Source of the DNA: a virus
Taxonomy: Duplodnaviria; Heunggongvirae; Uroviricota; Caudoviricetes
Length of the DNA stretch: 39,305 bases
IMG/VR virus record: IMGVR_UViG_2706794689_000009
Strand: one strand, 5' to 3'
Part shown: piece after piece, positions 5,044 through 37,463 of the stretch
How the letters are laid out: every line of letters starts with the position of its first letter
Position numbering within the stretch: position 1 is the stretch's first letter
Translations under genes and position numbers: made by a program
The notes under the pieces: generated by a model
Told to the model about the DNA's origin: nothing
Seen by the model: the letters and a program-made list of their open reading frames with translations, nothing else
Databases searched by the model: none

Positions 5044-5310
5044 ATGAGGTGTTATATGAATATGCAATCCTGCGGTAACAAAATGAATTTATTCGACTCC
5101 CTGAACAGCGCGCGCCGTCTGACCGAACTTGCCGGTGCGGTACTGGAACGCAGTAAGCGCTATCCGCAACGTTTTGCACTGAAAACCACGCCGCCGGTAG
5201 GCAACGTGCAGGGAACCGGTGAAATTGAAATCACCATACAGACCAACGGCCTGCGCCGCCGTGTGAAGGCCACCCGCATCAGCGGCTGCACGGTTTACTG
5301 GGAGGTGTGA
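5044..5310 (+). CDS. Hypothetical early-region protein
   Basis: 88-aa ORF on the same strand, contiguous with neighbours; multiple possible ATG starts (5044/5056/5062). Confidence 0.45.
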   Translation: MRCYMNMQSCGNKMNLFDSLNSARRLTELAGAVLERSKRYPQRFALKTTPPVGNVQGTGEIEITIQTNGLRRRVKATRISGCTVYWEV

Positions 5311-5311
5311 G

Positions 5312-5593
5312 GTGAAAAAAAATCTCATTGCATGGGCGTGGTCGAGTGGTCTTATTGAGTTTGGTTACGTCCTGCCGGAAGGTGCATTGCCGATAGTTGC
5401 CGGAAAGCCTGCCACGGTACGGCATGTGATTGAGGTTATGGCGCGTCATGGACGTGATGAACAGGAGCAGTTACTGGTTCCGGGGATACCGGAAGCGGTG
5501 ACGGAGGAAGAAGCCTTTAATGCCATGATTCGGTTCTGCCGTGAGGTTAGACGCCGGGTCAGTTATCCAAACAGAACGAGGACCAGAGGATGA
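5312..5593 (+). CDS. Hypothetical early-region protein (GTG start)
   Basis: 93-aa ORF tightly packed between neighbours; its end overlaps the next start. Confidence 0.4.
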   Translation: MKKNLIAWAWSSGLIEFGYVLPEGALPIVAGKPATVRHVIEVMARHGRDEQEQLLVPGIPEAVTEEEAFNAMIRFCREVRRRVSYPNRTRTRG

Positions 5594-6847: not shown

Positions 6848-7381
6848 ATGATTGATGCAAAAGTGCTTGAAGGGGTTAAAAACTGGCTGTGTATTTATGG
6901 CCGCCTGACCTGCGGTGTACTGGCTGAAAAAATGAATATGCCGCCATCCTCCATGGTTTATTTTCTGCGTGATGCGGTTGATGCAGGCGTGCTGACGGAA
7001 TGTAACGGTTTTTATGATATTCCGCGTCCCCGCCCGGTGCAGCCGGTTCGTCGCAAATGCAGCCAGGAATCTGCGGCTGATGATGTTCAGTGGTGCGGCT
7101 TCAGAAAATCCCTGCCATGGATTGAGGGGCATGATATTCCGTCGATGGCGTGGGAATTTGCTCAGGGCGTTCTGACCTGTGAAACCGTTTATGTGGTGGC
7201 TGAAGTTGATGAGCAGGCCATGAAAGAAGGCGTGCCCCAGTTTGTGATGGCGTATATCGACATACGCCTGGGCGTCATTATCTGCGGTTTAAGCGGCTGG
7301 AATATCACTGAACATGTTCTGCGCTACCTGATTGTTGACCGGACAGCAGCGCCTGCCGGGATATCTGCGGAGGTGGCGTAA
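6848..7381 (+). CDS. Hypothetical early-region protein
   Basis: 177-aa ORF; stop overlaps the next start (translational coupling). Confidence 0.5.
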   Translation: MIDAKVLEGVKNWLCIYGRLTCGVLAEKMNMPPSSMVYFLRDAVDAGVLTECNGFYDIPRPRPVQPVRRKCSQESAADDVQWCGFRKSLPWIEGHDIPSMAWEFAQGVLTCETVYVVAEVDEQAMKEGVPQFVMAYIDIRLGVIICGLSGWNITEHVLRYLIVDRTAAPAGISAEVA

Positions 7382-7896
7382 TGTTCTTTAAAACATCAAA
7401 CCCTTCCGCGCTGGCTGCGTGGCAAAAATACCAGCAGGACTGCCAGAAAGTTAAGGATGAGGCAAAACGCCTTGAGGCCGTGCTGAATGTTGCGTGCCGG
7501 TCGGTATTTGTATCCGGTATCAGTGGATTTTACTTTAAGGGACTGCGTTTTACGGAGGACAAATATCCTTTTCATCGCGACTTATGGCGAAAACCGACTG
7601 CGTCGAATGGCTGGAGCTGCACACCGCGCACATCACGTATCCCTAAAACCCTGCGTGTTGCCTCTGATGAACTGAACAGTCTGTGGCGTGAATATTCGCC
7701 CGTCACGTATGCCAGAACCGATGCGCTGTTGTTCTGGTTGGGTATTGATTTCTCGGCAATCCTGTTTGGCCCTGTGAAGTGGTTCTGCGTTGACGATGTG
7801 ATTTACCTTCAGTGCGGCGTAAAACCCGCAAAACAGAAAATGACCGAAATACTGTCTGATGAGTTTTATGCTGCTGAAAAGCGAGTCAGGGGGTGA
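7381..7896 (+). CDS. Hypothetical early-region protein
   Basis: 171-aa ORF in the operon; no recognisable motif. Confidence 0.5.
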   Translation: MFFKTSNPSALAAWQKYQQDCQKVKDEAKRLEAVLNVACRSVFVSGISGFYFKGLRFTEDKYPFHRDLWRKPTASNGWSCTPRTSRIPKTLRVASDELNSLWREYSPVTYARTDALLFWLGIDFSAILFGPVKWFCVDDVIYLQCGVKPAKQKMTEILSDEFYAAEKRVRG

Positions 7897-7899
7897 TGC

Positions 7900-8451
7900 A
7901 TGATGAAATTACAACCCATGGGACTAAAAGGTCGCGCCCCCGCTCATGTCCGTCCGTGGACACCTGAAGAAGATGCGCTGCTGATTGCGCTTTATTCATC
8001 CACCCCGGTTAAGGATATTGCTGCCAGAATAAAAAGAACTGTCTGGGCTGTATATAACCGGACTGGTGTATTGCGCAGTTCATACCCGGAGTTACTGAAA
8101 TATAAACACCCAAGATTTACACCTGATGAAGATAAGTTTATTCGAAAAAATGCCAGAACAATGACCTGCCAGCAAATGGGAGAATATCTCGGACGTAATA
8201 AAGATTCTGTCAGATGTCGGGCAGGAATGATTGGTGCTGGATTAACAAAGTGCGGAGAGTTACGCCCCGGCACGCGCATATCTGATGATGATGTACGTCT
8301 TATACGTGAGCTGCGTGATTCCGATTACCCACGCCGTCTGTCATTCCGGGAAATTGGCGAAAAGTTTGGAATATCTGAACATTCTGCTCACGCAGTTTAT
8401 TACCGTCGCCGGACTGCCGAGGACGCTGTATTACGGGAGTTAACGCCATGA
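7900..8451 (+). CDS. Putative DNA-binding protein with two Myb/SANT-like W/FTPEED repeats and a C-terminal HTH-like segment
   Basis: Translation shows WTPEEDALLIALY...VWAVYNR and FTPDEDKFIRKNAR...VRCRAGM repeats, followed by LSFREIGEKFGISEHSAHAVYYRR. Confidence 0.5.
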   Translation: MMKLQPMGLKGRAPAHVRPWTPEEDALLIALYSSTPVKDIAARIKRTVWAVYNRTGVLRSSYPELLKYKHPRFTPDEDKFIRKNARTMTCQQMGEYLGRNKDSVRCRAGMIGAGLTKCGELRPGTRISDDDVRLIRELRDSDYPRRLSFREIGEKFGISEHSAHAVYYRRRTAEDAVLRELTP

Positions 8452-8780
8452 TAACGACCTTATTTGTTGAATCAGATGAACCTCTTGTGTGTGCCGCCGG
8501 AATGCCGCTCTGTGGCGGAACGCTGACCGGCGTTTATTTCGGGGATTTGCGCGGTTATCCCTGGCATTCACTGGATGACGCATTTCCGCCTGATATGGAG
8601 GCTGTCGTGCTGATTGTTCAGTATGGTGACCAACAGGAACTGCGCATCGGCCATATGGGGTATGAAGGCTTTTTTATTGATGAAGAAACCGGAGCCTGCC
8701 TTGAAGATGAGGACGGACAGGTGACGCACTGGTGCCATCTTTCGGCCTTGCCGGAATTACAGGGGATACATAATGGATGA
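8448..8780 (+). CDS. Hypothetical early-region protein
   Basis: 110-aa ORF, overlaps the upstream stop and the downstream start. Confidence 0.45.
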   Translation: MITTLFVESDEPLVCAAGMPLCGGTLTGVYFGDLRGYPWHSLDDAFPPDMEAVVLIVQYGDQQELRIGHMGYEGFFIDEETGACLEDEDGQVTHWCHLSALPELQGIHNG

Positions 8781-8916
8781 GCAAATTGTTGAATGTCCCA
8801 CCTGTGGAAATGAGGACCCGGAGTATCTGAAAGAGTGCCCACATTGTGGTGAGATAAAATGTAACCACTGCGATATGGGCGACGACACTGCATGTATAAA
8901 TTGTGAGGATGAATAA
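8773..8916 (+). CDS. Zinc-ribbon mini-protein (47 aa, four Cys pairs)
   Basis: Hand translation MDEQIVECPTCGNEDPEYLKECPHCGEIKCNHCDMGDDTACINCEDE. ATG overlaps the upstream stop. Below the size cut-off of the ORF track. Confidence 0.4.
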   Translation: MDEQIVECPTCGNEDPEYLKECPHCGEIKCNHCDMGDDTACINCEDE

Positions 8917-8917
8917 T

Positions 8918-9205
8918 ATGGAAAAAGAAATCAAATTTGCGCCTAAATCTATCGACGAAGAACTGGCTAAAATCGGCATGCTTGAACGTATGCGGGACAT
9001 TATCGAATATGCGATAAAAGAAAATCTTGCAGCCAGAGAAGCCCTTTTGATAATGGAGCGGGAGATTAACCTGATTAAGGATGCTGTATCTCTGGATAAT
9101 AAAATAGCCCGCGAGGAATACGTTCGCCGTAGGCTCGGTGTTGATGGTTCAGCAATTCTTACATCTGAACATTATGCAAAAATTTTTAATCTTTTTCAGC
9201 GGTAA
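8918..9205 (+). CDS. Hypothetical protein in AT-rich patch
   Basis: 95 aa from ATG 8918 (MEKEIKFAPK...). The 3' end overlaps the 3' end of a convergent minus-strand ORF. Confidence 0.45.
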   Translation: MEKEIKFAPKSIDEELAKIGMLERMRDIIEYAIKENLAAREALLIMEREINLIKDAVSLDNKIAREEYVRRRLGVDGSAILTSEHYAKIFNLFQR

Positions 9206-9425
9206 TCCCCATACAGGCCCGGAGATTGTCGAAATGCCAGTCGGTATTAATATATGAGCCATCCTGGATATCTTCTGCATTTTCCGGGGTAGAGTTTTTT
9301 TGAGCGAGATTGATAATATGTATTGCCTCCTCACGGGAAATCAGCCCCTTATCGAACAGGGTTACCATAAGATTTCCAGCCATTGTGAATGCGGCAACAT
9401 CAAGTGCATTTTTTATATCTGACAT
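9186..9425 (-). CDS. Hypothetical protein, opposite strand inside the early operon
   Basis: Clean 79-aa ORF (MSDIKNALDVAAF...) with an AAGGA ribosome-binding site about 9 nt upstream of its ATG. AT-rich, convergent with 8918-9205. Confidence 0.45.
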   Translation of the reverse strand: MSDIKNALDVAAFTMAGNLMVTLFDKGLISREEAIHIINLAQKNSTPENAEDIQDGSYINTDWHFDNLRACMGITAEKD

Positions 9426-9455
9426 AGATTTTTCCTTTTATGTTAATTGACATGG

Positions 9456-9487
9456 CGGTGCGGTAACACCGCCCATTTTTTATGGAG
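9456..9487 (+). terminator. Intrinsic terminator-like hairpin GGCGGTG-cggtaa-CACCGCC followed by a T-run
   Basis: 7-bp GC-rich stem followed by ATTTTTTAT, directly upstream of the gemA start. Confidence 0.5.
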
Positions 9488-9495
9488 CCACGATA

Positions 9496-10018
9496 ATGAA
9501 TCGCGCTTCCCTGATTACCTTAATACATGTCGCAAAACGCGATCTACAGCTTGACCATGATACCTATACATCCGCGCTGCTGGCAGCCACCGGCAAATCC
9601 AGTTGCCGTGATATGTCACCCGGTGAGTTATCCCGCGTGCTGGATGTTTTCAAAAAACGCGGTTTTAAAGTGCGTCAGANNNNNNNNNNNNNNNNNNNNN
9701 NNNNNNNNNNNNNNNNNNNNNNNNNNNNNNNNNNNNNNNNNNNNNNNNNNNNNNNNNNNNNNNNNNNNNNNNNNNNNNNNNNNNNNNNNNNNNNNNNNNN
9801 NNNNNNNNNNNNNNNNNNNNNNNNNNNNNNNNNNNNNNNNNNNNNNNNNNNNNNNNNNNNNNNNNNNNNNNNNNNNNNNNNNNNNNNNNNNNNNNNNNNN
9901 NNNNNNNNNNNNNNNNNNNNNNNNNNNNNNNNTGCTGGCAGCCCTGGATATGTCGGAACGTGCAGTGATGAGTTATGAGCGTGTTTGCAGGCTGTATGAA
10001 AAATCATTCCCCCGTTAA
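9496..10018 (+). CDS. gemA: GemA-like early regulatory protein, interrupted by N-mask 9680-9932
   Basis: N-terminus MNRASLITLIHVAKRDLQLDHDTYTSALL...LSRVLDVFKKRGF fits the Mu gp16/GemA family. A C-terminal piece after the mask ends at 10018. Frame continuity across the mask cannot be verified. Confidence 0.55.
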
Positions 10019-10023
10019 CCCCA

Positions 10024-10052
10024 AATCCCGCCACAGCGCGGGATTTTTATTT
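10024..10052 (+). terminator. Intrinsic terminator-like hairpin AATCCCGC-cacag-GCGGGATT plus T-run
   Basis: Perfect 8-bp stem followed by TTTTATTTT, immediately after the gemA stop and before mor. Confidence 0.55.
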
Positions 10053-10088
10053 TAAACTTGCCCTGTGTAATGATGACCGGAGGCGGGT

Positions 10089-10337
10089 ATGGCTGAAACA
10101 CAGATGAGCATGTTTGGTGACAGCGAACAGCTGCACGCGCTGATTGACCGTCTGGATGATATTCCTGATGATGAGCTGAAAAAGAACTGGCCCGGCACGC
10201 TGCGGGACCTGGTTGATGTGATCAGTGCTGAACTGCACCGTCAGGGGATTGAACCTGCTCAGGCGGGAATGCTTGCCCGTAAGGTTGCAGCCGCACAGGC
10301 CGGGTACATGGGCGGGCGTGGTTATTATCTCCCGGTC
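10089..10337 (+). CDS. mor: Mor-like middle operon regulator (3' end inside N-mask)
   Basis: MAETQMSMFGDSEQLHALIDRLDDIPDDELKKNWPGTLRDLVDVISAELHRQGIEPAQAGMLARKVAAAQAGYMGGRGYYLP parallels the Mu Mor N-terminal and dimerisation region. The C-terminal HTH would fall in the masked bases. Confidence 0.7.
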
Positions 10338-10597
10338 NNNNNNNNNNNNNNNNNNNNNNNNNNNNNNNNNNNNNNNNNNNNNNNNNNNNNNNNNNNNNNN
10401 NNNNNNNNNNNNNNNNNNNNNNNNNNNNNNNNNNNNNNNNNNNNNNNNNNNNNNNNNNNNNNNNNNNNNNNNNNNNNNNNNNNNNNNNNNNNNNNNNNNN
10501 NNNNNNNNNNNNNNNNNNNNNNNNNNNNNNNNNNNNNNNNNNNNNNNNNNNNNNNNNNNNNNNNNNNNNNNNNNNNNNNNNNNNNNNNNNNNNNNNN

Positions 10598-13166: not shown

Positions 13167-13415
13167 ATGGCAACAGATAACCGCTCACTGATGAGCAGTG
13201 CCCATCAGAAAGCATTCAGTCTTGCAACACAGTTACCTCCTGAAACCATAAAGGTATGTCGTGAGTTGACTGAACTCAGCATTGCCGGGGAAATATCCCT
13301 GGAACAACTGCATTCGCTGCTGGCAGAGGCTGCCACTGATGAGTTGAGCGGCGTGGACGTGATGACTGAAGAGCTTGAGTCCCGAATCAAAAGCATTCTG
13401 ACAGGTAAAGCATGA
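13167..13415 (+). CDS. Mini-protein sharing the C-terminal motif of the preceding gp27-like protein
   Basis: 82 aa, strong AGGAGGTG ribosome-binding site. Its C-terminus ATDELSGVDVMTEELESRIKSILTGKA parallels VTDELRGVDGMSEQIEFRIRQMLLGKA at the end of 12575-13156. Confidence 0.5.
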   Translation: MATDNRSLMSSAHQKAFSLATQLPPETIKVCRELTELSIAGEISLEQLHSLLAEAATDELSGVDVMTEELESRIKSILTGKA

Positions 13416-16668: not shown

Positions 16669-17983
16669 TTTAGGTTATGCCGCCACGCTTCCCTCAAAAG
16701 AGACGGTGGCATACTTCCGCGCCAAAGGGGCGCATATCAGCTGGAACTGGTTCGAAACAGACGCGGATGTTCATGCCCGCTCATTCACGGCAGCAAAAAC
16801 GGCACGGCTGGATGTGGTAACCACATTACAGGCCGAAGTGCAGCGGGCCATTGATGAGGGGATTTCACAGAAAGAATTTATCCGCACACTGACGCCACGC
16901 CTGCAAAAGCTGGGATGGTGGGGAAAGCAGATTGTGGTGGACAGCGACGGTAACGCGGAAGAAGTGCAGCAGGGCAGTCCCCGTCGTCTGGCGCTGATTT
17001 ACAACGTGAACACCCGTGTGGCTTACAATGCCGGGCGTTACACGCAGATGATGAACAACACGGACACGCATCCGTTCTGGCAGTATGTGGCGGTCATGGA
17101 CAGCCGTACCCGCCCGTCGCATTCCGCCCTTAACGGTCTGGTATTCCGCTATGACGATCCGTTCTGGAAAACACACTACCCGCCCAATGGCTGGAACTGC
17201 CGCTGCCGTGTGCGGCCATTGTCTCAGGCCCGTCTGGATGCAATGGGGTTATCCGTTTCATCCGGTGAGGATCATCTCTCCACCCGCAATGTTGAGGCTG
17301 GCGTGGATAAACAGACCGGAGAAGTCAGAGAAATGCCGGTGACCACATATTCAGATGGCGCCAGAACCATGACACCGGATGTGGGCTGGTCATATAACCC
17401 CGGCTCGGCAGCGTTCGGCACAGACCAGGCGCTGATCCGCAAACTGATCGAGGTGAAAAGCCCGGCGTTACGGGAAATGGTGGTTCAGGAGATGAACAAC
17501 AGCCCGGAGCGGCAGCTGGCGTTCCGCATCTGGGCAAAAAACATCATGCAGACCCGGCGAGGTGGTAACGATATCCGCACGCTGGGCTTTATGACTGAAA
17601 GCATTGCGCAGGCAGTGGAAAGCCGGACGGGAACGCCACCGGCCCGCCTGCTGGCGATGAGCGGTAAAAATGTGCTCCATGCGGACAGTGTGAAACATCA
17701 GAATGACGGCATCGCTCTGACGCCGGAGGACTTCGGGCGCTTACCGGCAATGCTGGCAAGGCCAAAAGCGGTACTGTGGGACAAACGGCACAACAATCTG
17801 ATGTATATCGTGGAAAATCAGGATGGCAGTGTGCAGATTGCCGTTAATGCACCGTACAGTCTGAAACGTCAGCCCGACAAACTGGATGTGATTGTGAATG
17901 CTTACCGGGTTATCAATATGGATAAGCTGAAATCGGATATCCGGGGCGGAATGCTTGAGGTGCTGGAAGGACAAATTGATTAA
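16652..17983 (+). CDS. Head morphogenesis protein (Mu F-like)
   Basis: 443 aa with the conserved core PFWQYVAVMDSRTRPSHSALNGLVFRYDDPFW...NCRCRV. Confidence 0.85.
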   Translation: MAQGIDLGYAATLPSKETVAYFRAKGAHISWNWFETDADVHARSFTAAKTARLDVVTTLQAEVQRAIDEGISQKEFIRTLTPRLQKLGWWGKQIVVDSDGNAEEVQQGSPRRLALIYNVNTRVAYNAGRYTQMMNNTDTHPFWQYVAVMDSRTRPSHSALNGLVFRYDDPFWKTHYPPNGWNCRCRVRPLSQARLDAMGLSVSSGEDHLSTRNVEAGVDKQTGEVREMPVTTYSDGARTMTPDVGWSYNPGSAAFGTDQALIRKLIEVKSPALREMVVQEMNNSPERQLAFRIWAKNIMQTRRGGNDIRTLGFMTESIAQAVESRTGTPPARLLAMSGKNVLHADSVKHQNDGIALTPEDFGRLPAMLARPKAVLWDKRHNNLMYIVENQDGSVQIAVNAPYSLKRQPDKLDVIVNAYRVINMDKLKSDIRGGMLEVLEGQID

Positions 17984-17984
17984 C

Positions 17985-18064
17985 GGTCAGTGGCGGGGGT
18001 CGAACCCGCATACATGATCCACCCGGAGGCAGGCACCGACTTTACCAGTTAAGCGTACACTGAC
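17985..18064 (-). other. tRNA-like element: perfect 7-bp acceptor stem and canonical T-arm; D and anticodon arms do not fold canonically by eye
   Basis: Minus-strand read GTCAGTG-TA-...-GCGGG-TTCGACC-CCCGC-CACTGAC-C: a 7-bp acceptor pairing, U8-A9, and a 5-bp T-stem with TTCGA T-loop. The internal 48 nt gave no clean D or anticodon stem on manual folding. Confidence 0.3.
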
Positions 18065-32988: not shown

Positions 32989-33471
32989 TTACTGTGGCTG
33001 CTCAGGCCATTTAATGGCGTTAAATTCAGCTTCTGTTTTAATGGCGGGTAGTTCCATTTTCTTCACCTGACTGATGTATGCCATCCATTGGGTAAGTGCT
33101 GCTCTGTCTTCATCGCTGATGGTGCCCAGTTGTAGCTCCGTTCTCCAGTCATTAATTTTTTCATATGCCTGATTAAGATATGACTGGCGCATTGCTTCCA
33201 GTTTTCTTGCGTAGTTAACCGGAATACGGGAGATTATGCCATTATCAAACTTCCAGTTTCCTGAAATATCCGTGCCTTCAGGGAGTTCATCGACCTCAAC
33301 CACAGAAAACCCCGCAGGATACAGCGCCGAGGCGTCCTGTGATATTGAGCAGATAACGCCGCTGTCAGGTGTTATGCAAAGTTTATATTTTTTGGTGAAT
33401 AATGGCAGGGATTCGTAGAAATCCTTACCATCTTCACTCTGGAAATACTGAACATTATTACCATATGGCAT
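32989..33471 (-). CDS. Tail fibre assembly protein (U'-like), inside the invertible segment
   Basis: 160 aa, minus strand. The conserved C-terminal motif ISDEDRAALTQWMAYISQVKKMELPAI...KWPEQPQ is typical of tail fibre assembly chaperones. Confidence 0.75.
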   Translation of the reverse strand: MPYGNNVQYFQSEDGKDFYESLPLFTKKYKLCITPDSGVICSISQDASALYPAGFSVVEVDELPEGTDISGNWKFDNGIISRIPVNYARKLEAMRQSYLNQAYEKINDWRTELQLGTISDEDRAALTQWMAYISQVKKMELPAIKTEAEFNAIKWPEQPQ

Positions 33472-33736
33472 ATNNNNNNNNNNNNNNNNNNNNNNNNNNN
33501 NNNNNNNNNNNNNNNNNNNNNNNNNNNNNNNNNNNNNNNNNNNNNNNNNNNNNNNNNNNNNNNNNNNNNNNNNNNNNNNNNNNNNNNNNNNNNNNNNNNN
33601 NNNNNNNNNNNNNNNNNNNNNNNNNNNNNNNNNNNNNNNNNNNNNNNNNNNNNNNNNNNNNNNNNNNNNNNNNNNNNNNNNNNNNNNNNNNNNNNNNNNN
33701 NNNNNNNNNNNNNNNNNNNNNNNNNNNNNNNNNNNN

Positions 33737-33840
33737 CTGCTCCCAGCCTGATATCCTGGATATATCGGGAATCCGCATCCTGCTGTGTTATACCAGAAGT
33801 GATGTTTATGTCCTGCGTCCCGTCAAAGGGAACCCCATTA
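33737..33840 (-). CDS. Alternative tail fibre variable segment (Sv'-like), fragment visible between N-masks
   Basis: Minus-strand translation [34 protein letters not shown] starts at the right crossover repeat and shares [11 protein letters not shown] with S. Confidence 0.5.
33811..33840 (-). repeat. gix-like inversion crossover site, right copy (may extend into the N-mask)
   Basis: Reverse complement of 32699-32728 with one mismatch. Confidence 0.65.
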
Positions 33841-34090
33841 NNNNNNNNNNNNNNNNNNNNNNNNNNNNNNNNNNNNNNNNNNNNNNNNNNNNNNNNNNNN
33901 NNNNNNNNNNNNNNNNNNNNNNNNNNNNNNNNNNNNNNNNNNNNNNNNNNNNNNNNNNNNNNNNNNNNNNNNNNNNNNNNNNNNNNNNNNNNNNNNNNNN
34001 NNNNNNNNNNNNNNNNNNNNNNNNNNNNNNNNNNNNNNNNNNNNNNNNNNNNNNNNNNNNNNNNNNNNNNNNNNNNNNNNNNNNNNNNNN

Positions 34091-34620
34091 CGGCGCTACA
34101 AAGAAATGCGCTGGAATGTGCAGGATGTGAGCTGTTTTTCGAAGACAGAATAAGCGGTAAGACAAGGGAGCGTCCCGGACTTAAACGCGCATTAAAGCGA
34201 CTCCGGCCAGGGGATACCCTGCTGGTCTGGAAACTGGATCGCCTTGGACGCAGTATGCAGCACCTTGTCCTTTTAACAGAAGAACTCCGGCAACGCGGCG
34301 TTAACTTCCGCAGCATTACGGACAATATTGATACATCCACTCCCATGGGACGTTTCTTTTTCCATATAATGGGCGCGCTGGCGGAAATGGAGCGGGAACT
34401 CATTATTGAACGTACACGCGCGGGTCTTGCTGCTGCCCGTGCTCAGGGGCGTCATGGCGGCAGACCTCAGAAACTGACAGAGAAAGAGCGGGAGCAAATC
34501 GCCCGTTTGCTGGCTAATGGCGAGTCCCGTAAACAAATCGCACTGATATTTGATATTGGCCTTTCCACCCTTTATCGTTATTTTCCTGCCTCACCAGCTC
34601 CGTCACCAAAAGTACCGTGA
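34091..34620 (+). CDS. gin: Serine recombinase DNA invertase (Gin/Hin/Cin/Pin family); 5' end inside N-mask
   Basis: Visible translation LQRNALECAGCE...DRPGLKRALKRL..GDTLLVWKLDRLGRSM.HL...ELRQRGVNFRSITDNIDTSTPMGRFFFHIMGALAEMERELIIERT..GLAAARAQGR.GGRP is near co-linear with Mu Gin. The catalytic serine region is masked. Confidence 0.9.
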
Positions 34621-34705
34621 CGCTTTTTTGAATTTCCGCAAAACACATATTTTTCAGCGGTCGCTATTCTGACTCTGTTTAATTCAGAAACAGGCAGAAA
34701 AGACG

Positions 34706-36760
34706 ATGTCAGACTCCAAGTGGAAAATGCTCTCCGCCATGCCCGGAGAGTTTTCAGTCAAGGTTGCCGGTGGCACGGTGGCATTTATTGAAAGCCCTTT
34801 CCGCCCTTCGGGTAATAAAGGGGGGATCACCTTCGCAGACTGCGTGATCCGCTTCAGCACGAAAGAGCCATTATGGGTAATGCCGGTATCCGGTAATCCC
34901 AGTGCAGAAATCACCAGTTCAGGCGTGACTGGCATCATTCCAATCACATCTGACGTGGCCGGAACGCTCACGCCCTCCGACTGGAATGCACCGGATAACG
35001 CCGGGCCTTCCGGTAGCACGAATGGCAGCAGTTCAGAGCCGGAATATTACTTTGTTGTCATTCTCGCGGGTCAGTCAAATGGCATGGCCTACGGCGAGGG
35101 GCTGCCGTTACCGGATTCGTTTGACCGCCCGGACCCACGCATTAAGCAACTGGCACGCCGCAGTACGGTAACGCCCAACGGTACGTCGTGTACATACAAC
35201 GACATCATTCCGGCAGACCACTGCCTGCATGATGTTCAGGATATGAGCGGGATAAACCACCCGAAAGCTGATCTGGCAAAAGGCCAGTACGGGACTGTCG
35301 GTCAGGGGTTGCATATTGCCAAAAAACTGCTTCCCTATATCCCACAGAATGCCGGGATACTTCTGGTGCCCTGTTGTCGTGGCGGGTCAGCATTCACCAC
35401 TGGAGCCGACGGCTCATTCAGTGAGGCCAGCGGTGCTTCCGCTGATTCTTCACGCTGGGGGGCCGGTAAACCTCTGTATCAGGACCTGGTAAGCCGCACC
35501 AAAGTCGCGCTGGCGAAAAACCCGAAAAACAAACTTCTGGCTGTGGTCTGGATGCAGGGAGAGGCAGACCTTGCCTCAGGAAGCCAGCAGCATAATAGTT
35601 TATTCACGGCCATGGTTCAGCAGTTCAGAACTGACCTGGCTCCGCTTGCTGCGCAGTGCGTGAGTGGAAATGCCACCACGGTGCCGTGGATTTGCGGTGA
35701 TACCACGTATTACTGGAAAAACGCTGGCACCGATAAATATGAGGCAGTATACGGTGGCTACAAAGGCAAGGAAGCACAGAAAATTTTCTTTGTACCGTTC
35801 CTGACGGATGAGAATGGACAGAGCACGCCAACGAATGCTCCGGCGGAAGACCCGGATATTGTGGCTGTCGGGTATTACGGTGCAGCATCCCGAACCCAGG
35901 GCAGTTTTGTTTCGACACAGCGTGACAGCCATTTCAGCTCATGGGCACGCAGGGGCGTCATTTCAGACCGTCTGGCCTCAGCTATTATGCTCCATGCAGG
36001 GCGCACGGCTGAACTGATGCGTGGGCAGACCGTGACACCACCGGATGAGAAGCCGTCACCTGATACACCATCAAAACCGTCCACGCCACCCGCAGACACC
36101 ACGACGATGAGTACGCTATTTGCTTACCGGGCATCTGAGTCTGAAGGACGGTTGACACCACAGGGTTGGGCTGCCGGAGGTGGCAAGGCTCAAATCGTGG
36201 ATGATGCCGGAGCCAGCGGGGGTAAGGCAATGAAACTGACCAAGGAAACAGGAAGAGCCCCCTGGTACCTTGAGCATGATGCTGGTAATGGTGCGGACCT
36301 GCTGGGTAAAGGTGGTCTTGTCAGTTGTCGTTTTAAACTCGATGGCGCGCTTACGGCTAATCAGTACGCACTGGCGCTGTACTGGCCGGTTTCTGCCCTG
36401 CCGCAAGGGGTTACTCTGGAAGGAAATGCCGGTCATAACCTGCTGGCATCGTTCTACGTACAGAGCGATGCCACAGACCTTAACGTGATGTATCACAAAG
36501 GAAACACGGCGCAGAACACGAAGCTGGGGTCATTCGGCGCATTTAATAACGAATGGCATACGCTGGGCTTCCGTTTTGCCGGTAACAACAGTATTGAGGT
36601 GACGCCGGTCATTGATGGTAAGGACGGGACACCATTCATGCTGTCGCAGTCTCCGGTCGGCACGTTTACGGCAGACAAGTTGCGCGTGACCGATATCACT
36701 AAAAATGCGACTTACCCGGTACTGATTGACAGTATCGTGGTGGAAGTGAATAACGCGTAA
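34706..36760 (+). CDS. Putative SGNH/SASA-family esterase (sialate O-acetylesterase-like) with Pro/Thr/Ser linker and C-terminal beta-rich domain
   Basis: 684 aa. Motif VVILAGQSNGMAYGEG (GQSN block of the SASA/SGNH fold), linker PPDEKPSPDTPSKPSTPPADTTT, then a roughly 220-aa C-terminal domain. Not part of the Mu backbone. Confidence 0.55.
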   Translation: MSDSKWKMLSAMPGEFSVKVAGGTVAFIESPFRPSGNKGGITFADCVIRFSTKEPLWVMPVSGNPSAEITSSGVTGIIPITSDVAGTLTPSDWNAPDNAGPSGSTNGSSSEPEYYFVVILAGQSNGMAYGEGLPLPDSFDRPDPRIKQLARRSTVTPNGTSCTYNDIIPADHCLHDVQDMSGINHPKADLAKGQYGTVGQGLHIAKKLLPYIPQNAGILLVPCCRGGSAFTTGADGSFSEASGASADSSRWGAGKPLYQDLVSRTKVALAKNPKNKLLAVVWMQGEADLASGSQQHNSLFTAMVQQFRTDLAPLAAQCVSGNATTVPWICGDTTYYWKNAGTDKYEAVYGGYKGKEAQKIFFVPFLTDENGQSTPTNAPAEDPDIVAVGYYGAASRTQGSFVSTQRDSHFSSWARRGVISDRLASAIMLHAGRTAELMRGQTVTPPDEKPSPDTPSKPSTPPADTTTMSTLFAYRASESEGRLTPQGWAAGGGKAQIVDDAGASGGKAMKLTKETGRAPWYLEHDAGNGADLLGKGGLVSCRFKLDGALTANQYALALYWPVSALPQGVTLEGNAGHNLLASFYVQSDATDLNVMYHKGNTAQNTKLGSFGAFNNEWHTLGFRFAGNNSIEVTPVIDGKDGTPFMLSQSPVGTFTADKLRVTDITKNATYPVLIDSIVVEVNNA

Positions 36761-36776
36761 GCAGGATAAAAAAATG

Positions 36777-36809
36777 CCGCCGGTAAGGGAAAACAAGAAA
36801 CCGGCGGCA
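36777..36809. terminator. GC-rich hairpin GCCGCCGG-(17 nt)-CCGGCGGC flanked by an A-run on plus and a T-run on minus
   Basis: 8-bp perfect stem immediately after the esterase stop. A U-tract follows only in minus orientation, so it is probably a minus-strand or bidirectional terminator. Confidence 0.4.
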
Positions 36810-36904: not shown

Positions 36905-37087
36905 ATGACATTTTTACAGCTTATTTTATTGTATTTCTGCACGGCAGTATGTGCGTTATATCTGGTGAGTGGTGGTTATAAGGCCATCAGAAATTATGTT
37001 CGCCGCAAAATTGAGGACGCAGCAGCTGAAAAACTCAGTAAAACAGCGCAGGTAACTCCGCTCCCAAAAGACCCGACCCAGCCCTGA
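36905..37087 (+). CDS. Small single-pass membrane protein (about 60 aa)
   Basis: GGGAGGG ribosome-binding site then ATG. TM helix FLQLILLYFCTAVCALYLV followed by a basic tail. Confidence 0.4.
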   Translation: MTFLQLILLYFCTAVCALYLVSGGYKAIRNYVRRKIEDAAAEKLSKTAQVTPLPKDPTQP

Positions 37088-37122
37088 TTGCAGGGCTTTA
37101 TTCCCGCATAAGGAGGATATAC

Positions 37123-37377
37123 ATGCCAGAAATTAAAGGCACCGTCACTGAAGACCTGGTAAAACAGGCACTGTATTCCGGTGAAGTAAATAAGTTGCTG
37201 AAAGCGCAGGTCCGCAAGGATTTTGAGGCACAAATCGACACTTACGTTGATGAAGTGCTGGCAAAACTTATTGGGCCAGCAGTTGCGGCCAGTGATGCTG
37301 ATAATGAGCCGAAAACCGACGCGCAGCCAGAGCAACCAGACCCGGCTCAGCCCGGAACTGACAGTACCATGATGTAA
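37123..37377 (+). CDS. Small acidic protein (84 aa)
   Basis: Near-consensus TAAGGAGGA Shine-Dalgarno 7 nt before the ATG. Helical N-terminus, acidic Pro-rich tail. Confidence 0.45.
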   Translation: MPEIKGTVTEDLVKQALYSGEVNKLLKAQVRKDFEAQIDTYVDEVLAKLIGPAVAASDADNEPKTDAQPEQPDPAQPGTDSTMM

Positions 37378-37385
37378 CAATACAA

Positions 37386-37463
37386 ACCGGTGGTGTCCTC
37401 TGCCGGTTTGACACTAATGAAAACATCTTTGCCGCTATCCAGCCATATGTAATCGCTGGATAG
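37386..37463. terminator. Two hairpins between convergent genes (AAACCGG...CCGGTTT, and 9-bp inverted repeat CTATCCAGC...GCTGGATAG)
   Basis: Inverted repeats directly visible between the 37123-37377 plus-strand gene and the 37545-37838 minus-strand gene. Confidence 0.35.

Follow-up and report, generated by a model that had tools for sequence, protein, structure and literature searches.

A protein of three Myb-like helix-turn-helix modules from the early region of a Mu-like prophage, with allelic divergence focused on its predicted recognition helices

Small proteins made of tandem Myb-like helix-turn-helix (HTH) modules have been described in several settings, and the gene treated here encodes a further one. 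It is located at positions 7900-8451 of the virus record IMGVR_UViG_2706794689_000009, a complete Mu-like prophage of 39,305 nucleotides (the whole stretch of DNA that was analysed, called the window below). Among the closest described systems is the R2R3 region of c-Myb (PDB 1H88, 1MSE), a basic protein segment with tandem tri-helical repeats of about 52-53 residues that open with W/F-T-x-E-E-D. The archaeal CRISPR-repeat-binding proteins Cbp1 and Cbp2 (PDB 2LVS) consist of three and two imperfect HTH repeats, respectively (PMC3597662). GcrA from Caulobacter (PDB 5YIU) combines one DNA-binding module with a sigma-70-binding C-terminal domain; its HTH (alpha2-alpha3) reads the major groove and m6A-marked sites are preferred (PMC5887438, PMC9976885). 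Finally, Myb-type HTH factors of phages are already in the literature, and RsfA-like ones are expanded in Bacillus phage G (PMC7824862).

According to the list of open reading frames (ORFs), the gene is a real ORF on the plus strand, with an ATG start and 183 amino acids. It coincides exactly with a coding sequence (CDS) of the Prokaryotic Genome Annotation Pipeline (PGAP), WP_000977059.1, which RefSeq names 'SANT/Myb-like DNA-binding domain-containing protein', and window positions 7381-9205 are 100% identical in DNA to a chromosomal Mu-like prophage of Escherichia coli strain 600029. Since RefSeq already gives this exact protein a SANT/Myb-like name, and since phages commonly encode Myb-type HTH proteins, the domain call is not new: the gene product is an uncharacterised further member of an established type of phage DNA-binding protein. 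The finding is largely ordinary, with a mild twist in the allelic divergence, which is focused on the recognition helices, and with a useful correction of the annotation. The first-pass annotation had described an early-region ORF with W/FTPEED repeats. Both the CDS and the two motifs are present, with WTPEED at residues 20-25 (nucleotides 7957-7974) and FTPDED at residues 73-78 (nucleotides 8116-8133). The gene and its product can be divided as follows.

7889-7893, plus strand: Shine-Dalgarno-like GGGGG run, read from the sequence, 7-11 nucleotides 5' of the ATG and directly abutting the stop codon (7894-7896) of the preceding gp12-like gene
7900-8451, plus strand: CDS of 183 amino acids with three tandem Myb/homeodomain-like HTH modules (WP_000977059.1)
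7900-7953, plus strand: N-terminal tail, residues 1-18, consensus MILxPMGxPGKCPAHVR, conserved in the family, net charge +4, predicted to be extended at low confidence (predicted local distance difference test, pLDDT, 48-68)
7954-8085, plus strand: module R1, residues 19-62, WTPEED and helices 22-31, 37-44 and 48-61 (alignments, model, hhalign)
8086-8115, plus strand: basic R1-R2 linker, residues 63-72, PELLKYKHPR (model, charge)
8116-8232, plus strand: module R2, residues 73-111, FTPDED and helices 75-84, 90-97 and 101-110, aligning to c-Myb R3
8233-8277, plus strand: R2-R3 linker, residues 112-126 (family alignments)
8278-8409, plus strand: module R3, residues 127-170, beginning ISDDDV, helices 129-140, 149-156 and 160-169, a diverged third repeat
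8410-8448, plus strand: conserved C-terminal segment, residues 171-183, RTAxDAxxRELxP, helix 173-181
7964-7974, 8123-8133 and 8282-8292, plus strand: three copies of the 11-nucleotide repeat CTGAWGAWGAT, spaced by exactly 159 nucleotides (53 codons)

The internal repeat is only weakly above chance in the single sequence and is strong at the level of the family. A Smith-Waterman alignment of R1 with R2 scores 27, against 16.9 +/- 3.3 for shuffled sequences, and 27 of 2000 shuffles reach the same score. The family-level tests rest on an alignment of 43 homologues. In this alignment the profiles of R1 and R2 match over 42 columns (hhalign, probability 98.7%, E 2.7e-16), and those of R2 and R3 match with a probability of 93% (E 3.2e-7). 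The three CTGAWGAWGAT copies are the DNA trace of the 53-residue protein repeat, where they encode PEED, PDED and SDDD. The R2-R3 profile match together with the exact 159-nucleotide register therefore gives three modules with a period of 53 residues. The C-terminus, which had earlier been called HTH-like, is indeed an HTH; it is, however, the third and diverged copy of the same repeat.

The likeness to Myb is carried by the family profile. Compared with c-Myb R2R3 (1h88_C residues 60-150), it matches over residues 18-106 of the phage protein with an E-value of 1.3e-7 and with both repeats in register, followed by B-Myb, v-Myb and Cbp2 (2lvs, E 4.6e-4). Two Pfam Myb models (PF00249 and PF13921) match 24-25 of the 43 members at E <= 1e-3, and the homologue P0024 exceeds the Pfam Myb gathering score (34.5 bits). 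The tandem Myb/SANT-like repeats proposed from the sequence are thus borne out. The Pfam scan that had been suggested alongside gives a divided answer: the Myb match is strong at family level, while the direct matches of this protein all stay below threshold, Myb and Sigma70_r4 (12.2 bits versus 24.1) included, as does HTH_AsnC (18.8 bits versus 27). The AlphaFold2 model, likewise suggested, consists of three three-helix modules, in which helices 2 and 3 form the HTH, and a final helix at 173-181 (pLDDT 87; predicted template modelling score, pTM, 0.58). Full-length Foldseek comparison of this model with the PDB gave no match at E <= 1e-3. The best multi-domain matches are the Myb repeats of SNAPC4 on DNA, Cbp2 (probability 0.99), tandem homeodomains, the bipartite domain of Tc3 and Pax5; SANT domains (CoREST, Bdp1) and the bipartite HTH domains of the Tc3 and Mos1 transposases are also found. 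Only single modules superpose, and no statement is therefore possible on the inter-module geometry.

The protein is strongly basic, with an isoelectric point (pI) of 9.88 and a net charge of +12 (family pI range 9.4-10.2). The positive charge is located in the third helix of each module (+3, +3 and +1) and in the linkers. A DNA mimic is ruled out by this basic character (pI 9.9). The three modules account for the whole protein, and no effector or other domain is present. In R1, the helix 48-61 is the predicted recognition helix, and W20, R46 and R54 are invariant. The most variable columns of the alignment lie in the third helices, with the scaffold residues conserved. Conservation extends beyond the modules to the N-terminal 18 residues, to K117-x-G119 in the R2-R3 linker (invariant even among the most distant full-length homologues) and to the C-terminal RTAxDAxxRELxP helix. 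The spaced aromatic residues of the first description are not a conserved feature, as W20 alone is invariant across the homologues. In R1, V37 and T55 stand where Myb has its second and third Trp; the first position of R2 is F73, which varies in the family, and W49 falls at a variable column.

Compared with c-Myb, the invariant R46 and R54 align with R125 and R133. However, only the first Trp of the W-x19-W-x19-W pattern is kept, and the base-contacting K128, E132, N136, N179 and N183 of Myb are not conserved. The phage protein further differs in having three modules, the third of which is sigma-r4/LuxR-like, in lacking a transactivation/regulatory region and in its prokaryotic virus setting. 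Membership of the Myb family in the strict sense is thus partial: the fold, the tandem register and the basic character agree, whereas the Trp signature is missing and the Pfam score of the protein itself is below threshold.

The similarity to Cbp1 and Cbp2 is one of design. These are also small basic proteins of only two or three imperfect homeodomain/Myb-like HTH repeats on basic linkers, and they act by occupancy on repeated DNA sites. The repeat and basic-linker architecture is shared, and the sequence similarity to Cbp2 is marginal (E 4.6e-4). In contrast to the phage early gene, the Cbp genes are crenarchaeal chromosomal genes linked to CRISPR arrays, and binding of CRISPR repeats is not expected in a phage early operon. 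As a three-repeat reader, the protein would be nearer in design to Cbp1/Cbp2 or to Myb R1R2R3 than to a dimeric bacterial regulator of the classical type.

The Pfam GcrA model matches three of the 43 homologues. The window protein itself has no Pfam GcrA match, three modules and no sigma-interacting domain, and membership of the GcrA family was rejected. R3 matches HTH_AsnC, HTH_10 and Sigma70_r4, all weakly. Together with the C-terminal helix it forms a four-helix, LuxR/GerE-like arrangement, in which the helix 173-181 may possibly serve as a dimerisation helix. With respect to both LuxR/GerE and sigma-70 region 4, all scores are below the family thresholds, a receiver domain and sigma region 2 are absent, and R3 is demonstrably a diverged Myb-like repeat copy (hhalign). 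The sigma-70 family was likewise rejected on the Sigma70_r4 score (12.2 < 24.1 bits), the lack of a region 2 match and the NCBIfam search, which returned only a sub-threshold match to the extracytoplasmic function (ECF) sigma-70 model TIGR02937 (12.3 versus 42.9).

Proteins of this kind are common in phages. The protein matches PHROG 323 ('transcriptional regulator, D5-like') with an E-value of 5.3e-53 and 181.6 bits (residues 2-182 versus profile positions 80-256 of 319). When 1.84 billion representatives were searched with the profile, 11,531 proteins matched at E <= 1e-3. Mu-like and P2-like prophages have relatives, and so do Listeria, Vibrio, Klebsiella and mycobacterial phages. For the two-repeat unit, matches include gp65 of Listeria phage B054 and gp44 of B025. 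At E <= 1e-3 there are also matches to 23 BFVD viral models, one of them a 'Myb-like domain-containing protein' of phage Goslar, and the best multi-HTH phage protein models reach E-values down to 3e-6. The earlier statement that this architecture is uncommon in phage early proteins is not supported in view of these matches. The PHROG 323, phage G and Goslar proteins resemble the protein described here in being phage-encoded, uncharacterised and presumed to bind DNA. Compared with other phage Myb-type proteins, the enterobacterial family of about 180 residues has a fixed layout (N-terminal tail, R1, R2, K-x-G linker, R3 and C-terminal helix) and a niche of its own, the early operons of temperate phages of the Mu-like and P2-like types. 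Most database homologues bear the name 'AsnC family protein', which is a misnomer for these Myb-like proteins.

Many of the 11,531 matches are proteins of 300-1,300 amino acids with 4-11 tandem copies of a repeat of about 50 residues (WTxEED...LGRS..AV..R...LG). These tandem-array proteins are prokaryotic or metagenomic (P0126, P0127, P0133, P0169, P0173). Examples are a 797-residue all-repeat protein from a metagenome-assembled genome of Propionibacteriaceae and an 807-residue protein in which an N-terminal ResIII/Helicase_C helicase is followed by about ten repeats; no described function of such long Myb-like arrays was found. In the mycobacteriophage records H6-H15 (e.g. Thibault 62039-62335), the two-repeat unit (residues 12-118, about 35% identity) matches stretches that carry the annotation of HNH endonuclease or DNA methyltransferase genes. 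Should these be fusions, the module would act as a portable domain for DNA targeting.

The Mu-like prophage starts with the genes for the repressor, a ner-like HTH protein, transposases A and B, small early proteins, Gam, a gp11-like and a gp12-like protein, and then the Myb-like gene. It is followed by four small ORFs, gemA (gp16), mor and the lysis genes, and then by the head and tail genes. The immediate neighbours are the following.

7381-7896, plus strand: gp12-like gene (homologue of Mu gp12, 55% identity), immediately 5' and in one translationally coupled run of early genes with the Myb-like gene; Pfam Phage_Mu_Gp12 on the equivalent gene
8448-8780, plus strand: ORF of 110 amino acids, PHROG 6925, function unknown, with an ATG that overlaps the Myb-like stop (ATGA)

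The Myb-like start lies 3 nucleotides past the gp12-like stop, its stop overlaps the following ATG, and no promoter or terminator above shuffle expectation was found near the gene. The Myb-like gene is therefore part of an early polycistronic transcript. The 110-residue ORF is kept in the Salmonella Mu-like prophage L009 (82% identical over 104 amino acids). It is replaced in L010 and is unrelated to the 109-residue gene 5' of the homologue in P2-like prophages, and a two-gene module with a conserved partner was therefore rejected.

Among temperate phages of Escherichia coli, Salmonella, Citrobacter and Hafnia, Mu-like and P2-like ones share the Myb-like gene as an accessory early gene. It is missing from phage Mu, which does have gp11 and gp12; gp13 and gp14 fill the slot. 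In Salmonella Mu-like prophages a homologue occupies the equivalent position after Gp11_C and Phage_Mu_Gp12. In the P2-like prophages L004-L006 it belongs to the early operon, and its stop overlaps the start of the replication gene gpA. It lies between ead/Ea22 and gpA in the P2-like Citrobacter phage Shae_phiSM and 5' of Ash/derepression genes and gpA in a Hafnia element. As the neighbours are unrelated between these contexts, the Myb-like gene travels alone. Of 5,426 complete E. coli genomes, 200 carry it, and these copies fall into discrete identity classes; at full length (>= 80% coverage) it is matched in only 3 of 50,697 phage records. In the Salmonella P2-like prophages (L004-L006 6752-8564), the homologue is located one 109-residue gene 3' of a Dam-type (MethyltransfD12) methyltransferase gene. 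Given that one module resembles the methylation-reading DNA-binding domain of GcrA, a link to DNA methylation is conceivable.

To analyse allelic divergence, two closely related Mu-like prophages of E. coli (L011 and L012) were compared with the window. The Myb-like gene is 78% identical in DNA, while its flanking genes are 92-97% identical. Identity drops to 66-72% across 8170-8440 and is back to 96% at 8440, which delimits one further feature.

7990-8440, plus strand: divergence island, 66-87% identity versus 88-97% in the flanks

The Nei-Gojobori synonymous divergence (dS) is 0.05-0.25 in the flanks and 0.28 in the 5' half of the gene, where the non-synonymous divergence (dN) is raised (dN/dS 0.38). 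In the 3' half it reaches 1.21 (dN/dS 0.19). This jump points to a replacement of the Myb-like allele by a much older one, with a breakpoint that would lie inside the gene. Compared with the two other E. coli alleles, residues differ at 23 of the 42 helix-3 positions versus 24 of 141 elsewhere (odds ratio 5.9, p 3.7e-6), and different Myb-like alleles probably read different sequences. If so, the family would supply a compact set of natural, modular DNA readers and a handle on an unstudied part of the 'semi-essential early' region of Mu. Relative to another Mu-like prophage (SCU-106, L013), further divergence islands are found at 505-1833, 5066-5524, 9933-10337, 33055-36784 and 36932-37406. 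They cover the immunity region (repressor/ner), some small early genes, Mor and the tail-fibre region, and the remainder of the genome is 85-95% identical.

For the function, the starting points are the observed fold, repeat architecture, charge, operon position, distribution and divergence pattern. We favour, as fairly likely, a sequence-specific accessory early protein that would bind double-stranded DNA, read an extended composite site by three tethered HTH modules and act by occupancy, with alleles of different specificity. For DNA binding itself our confidence is high. The binding, the way in which the site is read and the part played in regulation are proposed by analogy with c-Myb R2R3, GcrA (PMC5887438) and Cbp1/Cbp2 (PMC3597662). 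In lytic development the protein would be made from the phage early transcript, its gene having no separate promoter and being coupled in translation to the adjacent genes. Its conserved N-terminal arm, three tri-helical HTH modules on short basic linkers and C-terminal helix would make up a small basic protein in which the third helix of each module enters the major groove. An extended composite site would be read in this way, for which c-Myb R2R3, the Pax and Tc3 bipartite domains and the archaeal Cbp1/Cbp2 are the models. As the protein lacks an effector domain, occupancy of its site would be how it works, whether it serves as a repressor, a roadblock, an architectural factor or a recruiting factor. 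Since the gene is absent from Mu and passes as a single-gene cassette from Mu-like to P2-like phages or back, it is host or mobile-element DNA, and not a core phage step, that would be targeted. Of the 'DNA-binding regulator or host-factor mimic' suggested in the first-pass annotation, the DNA-binding role is made plausible by the basic pI, the helix-3 charge and the lack of any other domain, and a regulatory role is suggested by the analogies above. The mimic falls away, as no host-factor similarity was found.

Several points weigh against this proposal. The Pfam Myb_DNA-binding model (PF00249) gives only 19.7 bits on the protein's own sequence (E 9.5e-4, gathering threshold 24.4) and covers residues 19-33 only. 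The pTM of the model (0.58) leaves the relative placement of the modules undefined. SANT-type relatives bind proteins and not DNA. No characterised or experimentally tested member of this family was found in the literature, and no target site was identified for the protein. A search for operator-like repeats or palindromes in or around the gene returned only the trace of the coding repeat and short chance-level matches. In complete E. coli genomes, moreover, the Myb-like allele assorts independently of the immunity region (c/ner) and of the Mor allele, and therefore no co-varying phage site was found to support a phage target.

Other explanations were considered against the same data. The modules, the N-terminal tail or the C-terminal helix might dock onto a host protein (RNA polymerase or sigma, a nucleoid protein) and so redirect or inhibit it early in infection. 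An adaptor of this type would fit the SANT domains (CoREST, Bdp1) among the best structural matches, the weak matches of R3 to sigma-70 region 4 and ECF-sigma (Sigma70_r4 matches 24 of the 43 homologues), and the N-terminal 18 residues and K117-x-G119 linker, which are as conserved as the domain cores and have no obvious DNA-contact role. Protein-binding SANT domains are typically acidic, whereas this protein is strongly basic (pI 9.9) with the positive charge on its third helices. The allelic substitutions are, moreover, focused on the recognition helices, as expected for changing DNA specificity, and the protein ends 13 residues past R3, without a sigma-interacting C-terminal domain of the GcrA type. 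We consider such an adaptor rather unlikely. More weight still is taken from the AsnC/Lrp feast/famine regulator after which many GenBank and RefSeq records of homologues, and indeed most database homologues, are named. The HTH_AsnC-type match of R3 (18.8 bits, E 0.0014) is under the gathering score of 27 and confined to the HTH (residues 130-164), and HTH_AsnC matches 17 of the 43 members, compared with 24-25 for the Myb models. The ligand-binding RAM domain (AsnC_trans_reg) gives no match at E <= 10. As this domain is absent, AsnC/Lrp membership is refuted, and the idea is given hardly any credence.

Two further explanations retain DNA binding. The protein could be an accessory binder for replication or transposition, at an origin, a phage end or another cis site, and not a regulator of transcription. 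The homologue stop that overlaps the start of the replication initiator gpA in the P2-like prophages (L004-L006), the Hafnia homologue one gene 5' of gpA, the early block shared with transposase A/B, Gam, gp11 and gp12 in Mu-like phages, and the Tc3 and Mos1 transposase HTH domains among the structural matches would all suit such a role. However, phage Mu replicates without the gene and full-length matches occur in only 3 of 50,697 phage records, so that the gene is dispensable for both replication modes. To our knowledge, Mu-like transposition and P2-like rolling-circle replication have no cis sites in common; the neighbours also differ by context, and the allele assorts independently of other phage modules. 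A replication or transposition role is therefore regarded as doubtful. A similarly low probability is assigned to an allele-specific 'targeting cassette' in conflicts between mobile elements or with the host. Here the recognition helices would be swapped or diversified from one prophage to another that is otherwise nearly identical, and the gene would hop between Mu-like and P2-like phages, with each allele silencing or marking other DNA, such as a competing prophage, a satellite or a host defence locus. It would be like the heteroimmunity cassettes, but outside the immunity region. PADLOC gave no match for the Myb-like gene or its three neighbours.

Downstream of the 110-residue ORF, a further ORF of 47 amino acids (8773-8916, plus strand) contains four CxxC pairs (MDEQIVECPTCGNEDPEYLKECPHCGEIKCNHCDMGDDTACINCEDE). 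It matches PHROG 5584 (E 3e-26) and, weakly, a zinc ribbon, and is left unannotated by PGAP in the identical RefSeq genome, which has no CDS between locus positions 13400 and 13538. A GC-rich hairpin (stem of 7 base pairs, 6 of them G-C) followed by a T-run is located at 9454-9473 on the plus strand, between a minus-strand ORF (9186-9425) and the start of gemA (9496). It has the appearance of a terminator closing the accessory early block.

The window contains four masked runs of N (9680-9932, 10338-10597, 33474-33736 and 33841-34090). One falls in gemA/gp16, one at the mor-lysozyme junction and two in the tail-fibre/invertase region, and ORFs called there are unreliable. On the minus strand at about 17964-18043, PGAP reports a 'tRNA-OTHER' between the head-morphogenesis and virion-morphogenesis genes of the matching genome, and the same is seen in the SCU-106 prophage. 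ARAGORN found no tRNA or tmRNA in the window, and no Rfam family matches it at gathering thresholds. The prophage is inserted in a gene for an SgrR-family regulator (annotated as a pseudogene without its N-terminus) beside queC (window 1 to about 506; L001 4053-5126). Salmonella P2-like prophages with a homologous Myb-like gene (L004, L005) are also located near queC, fadM and ybaV.
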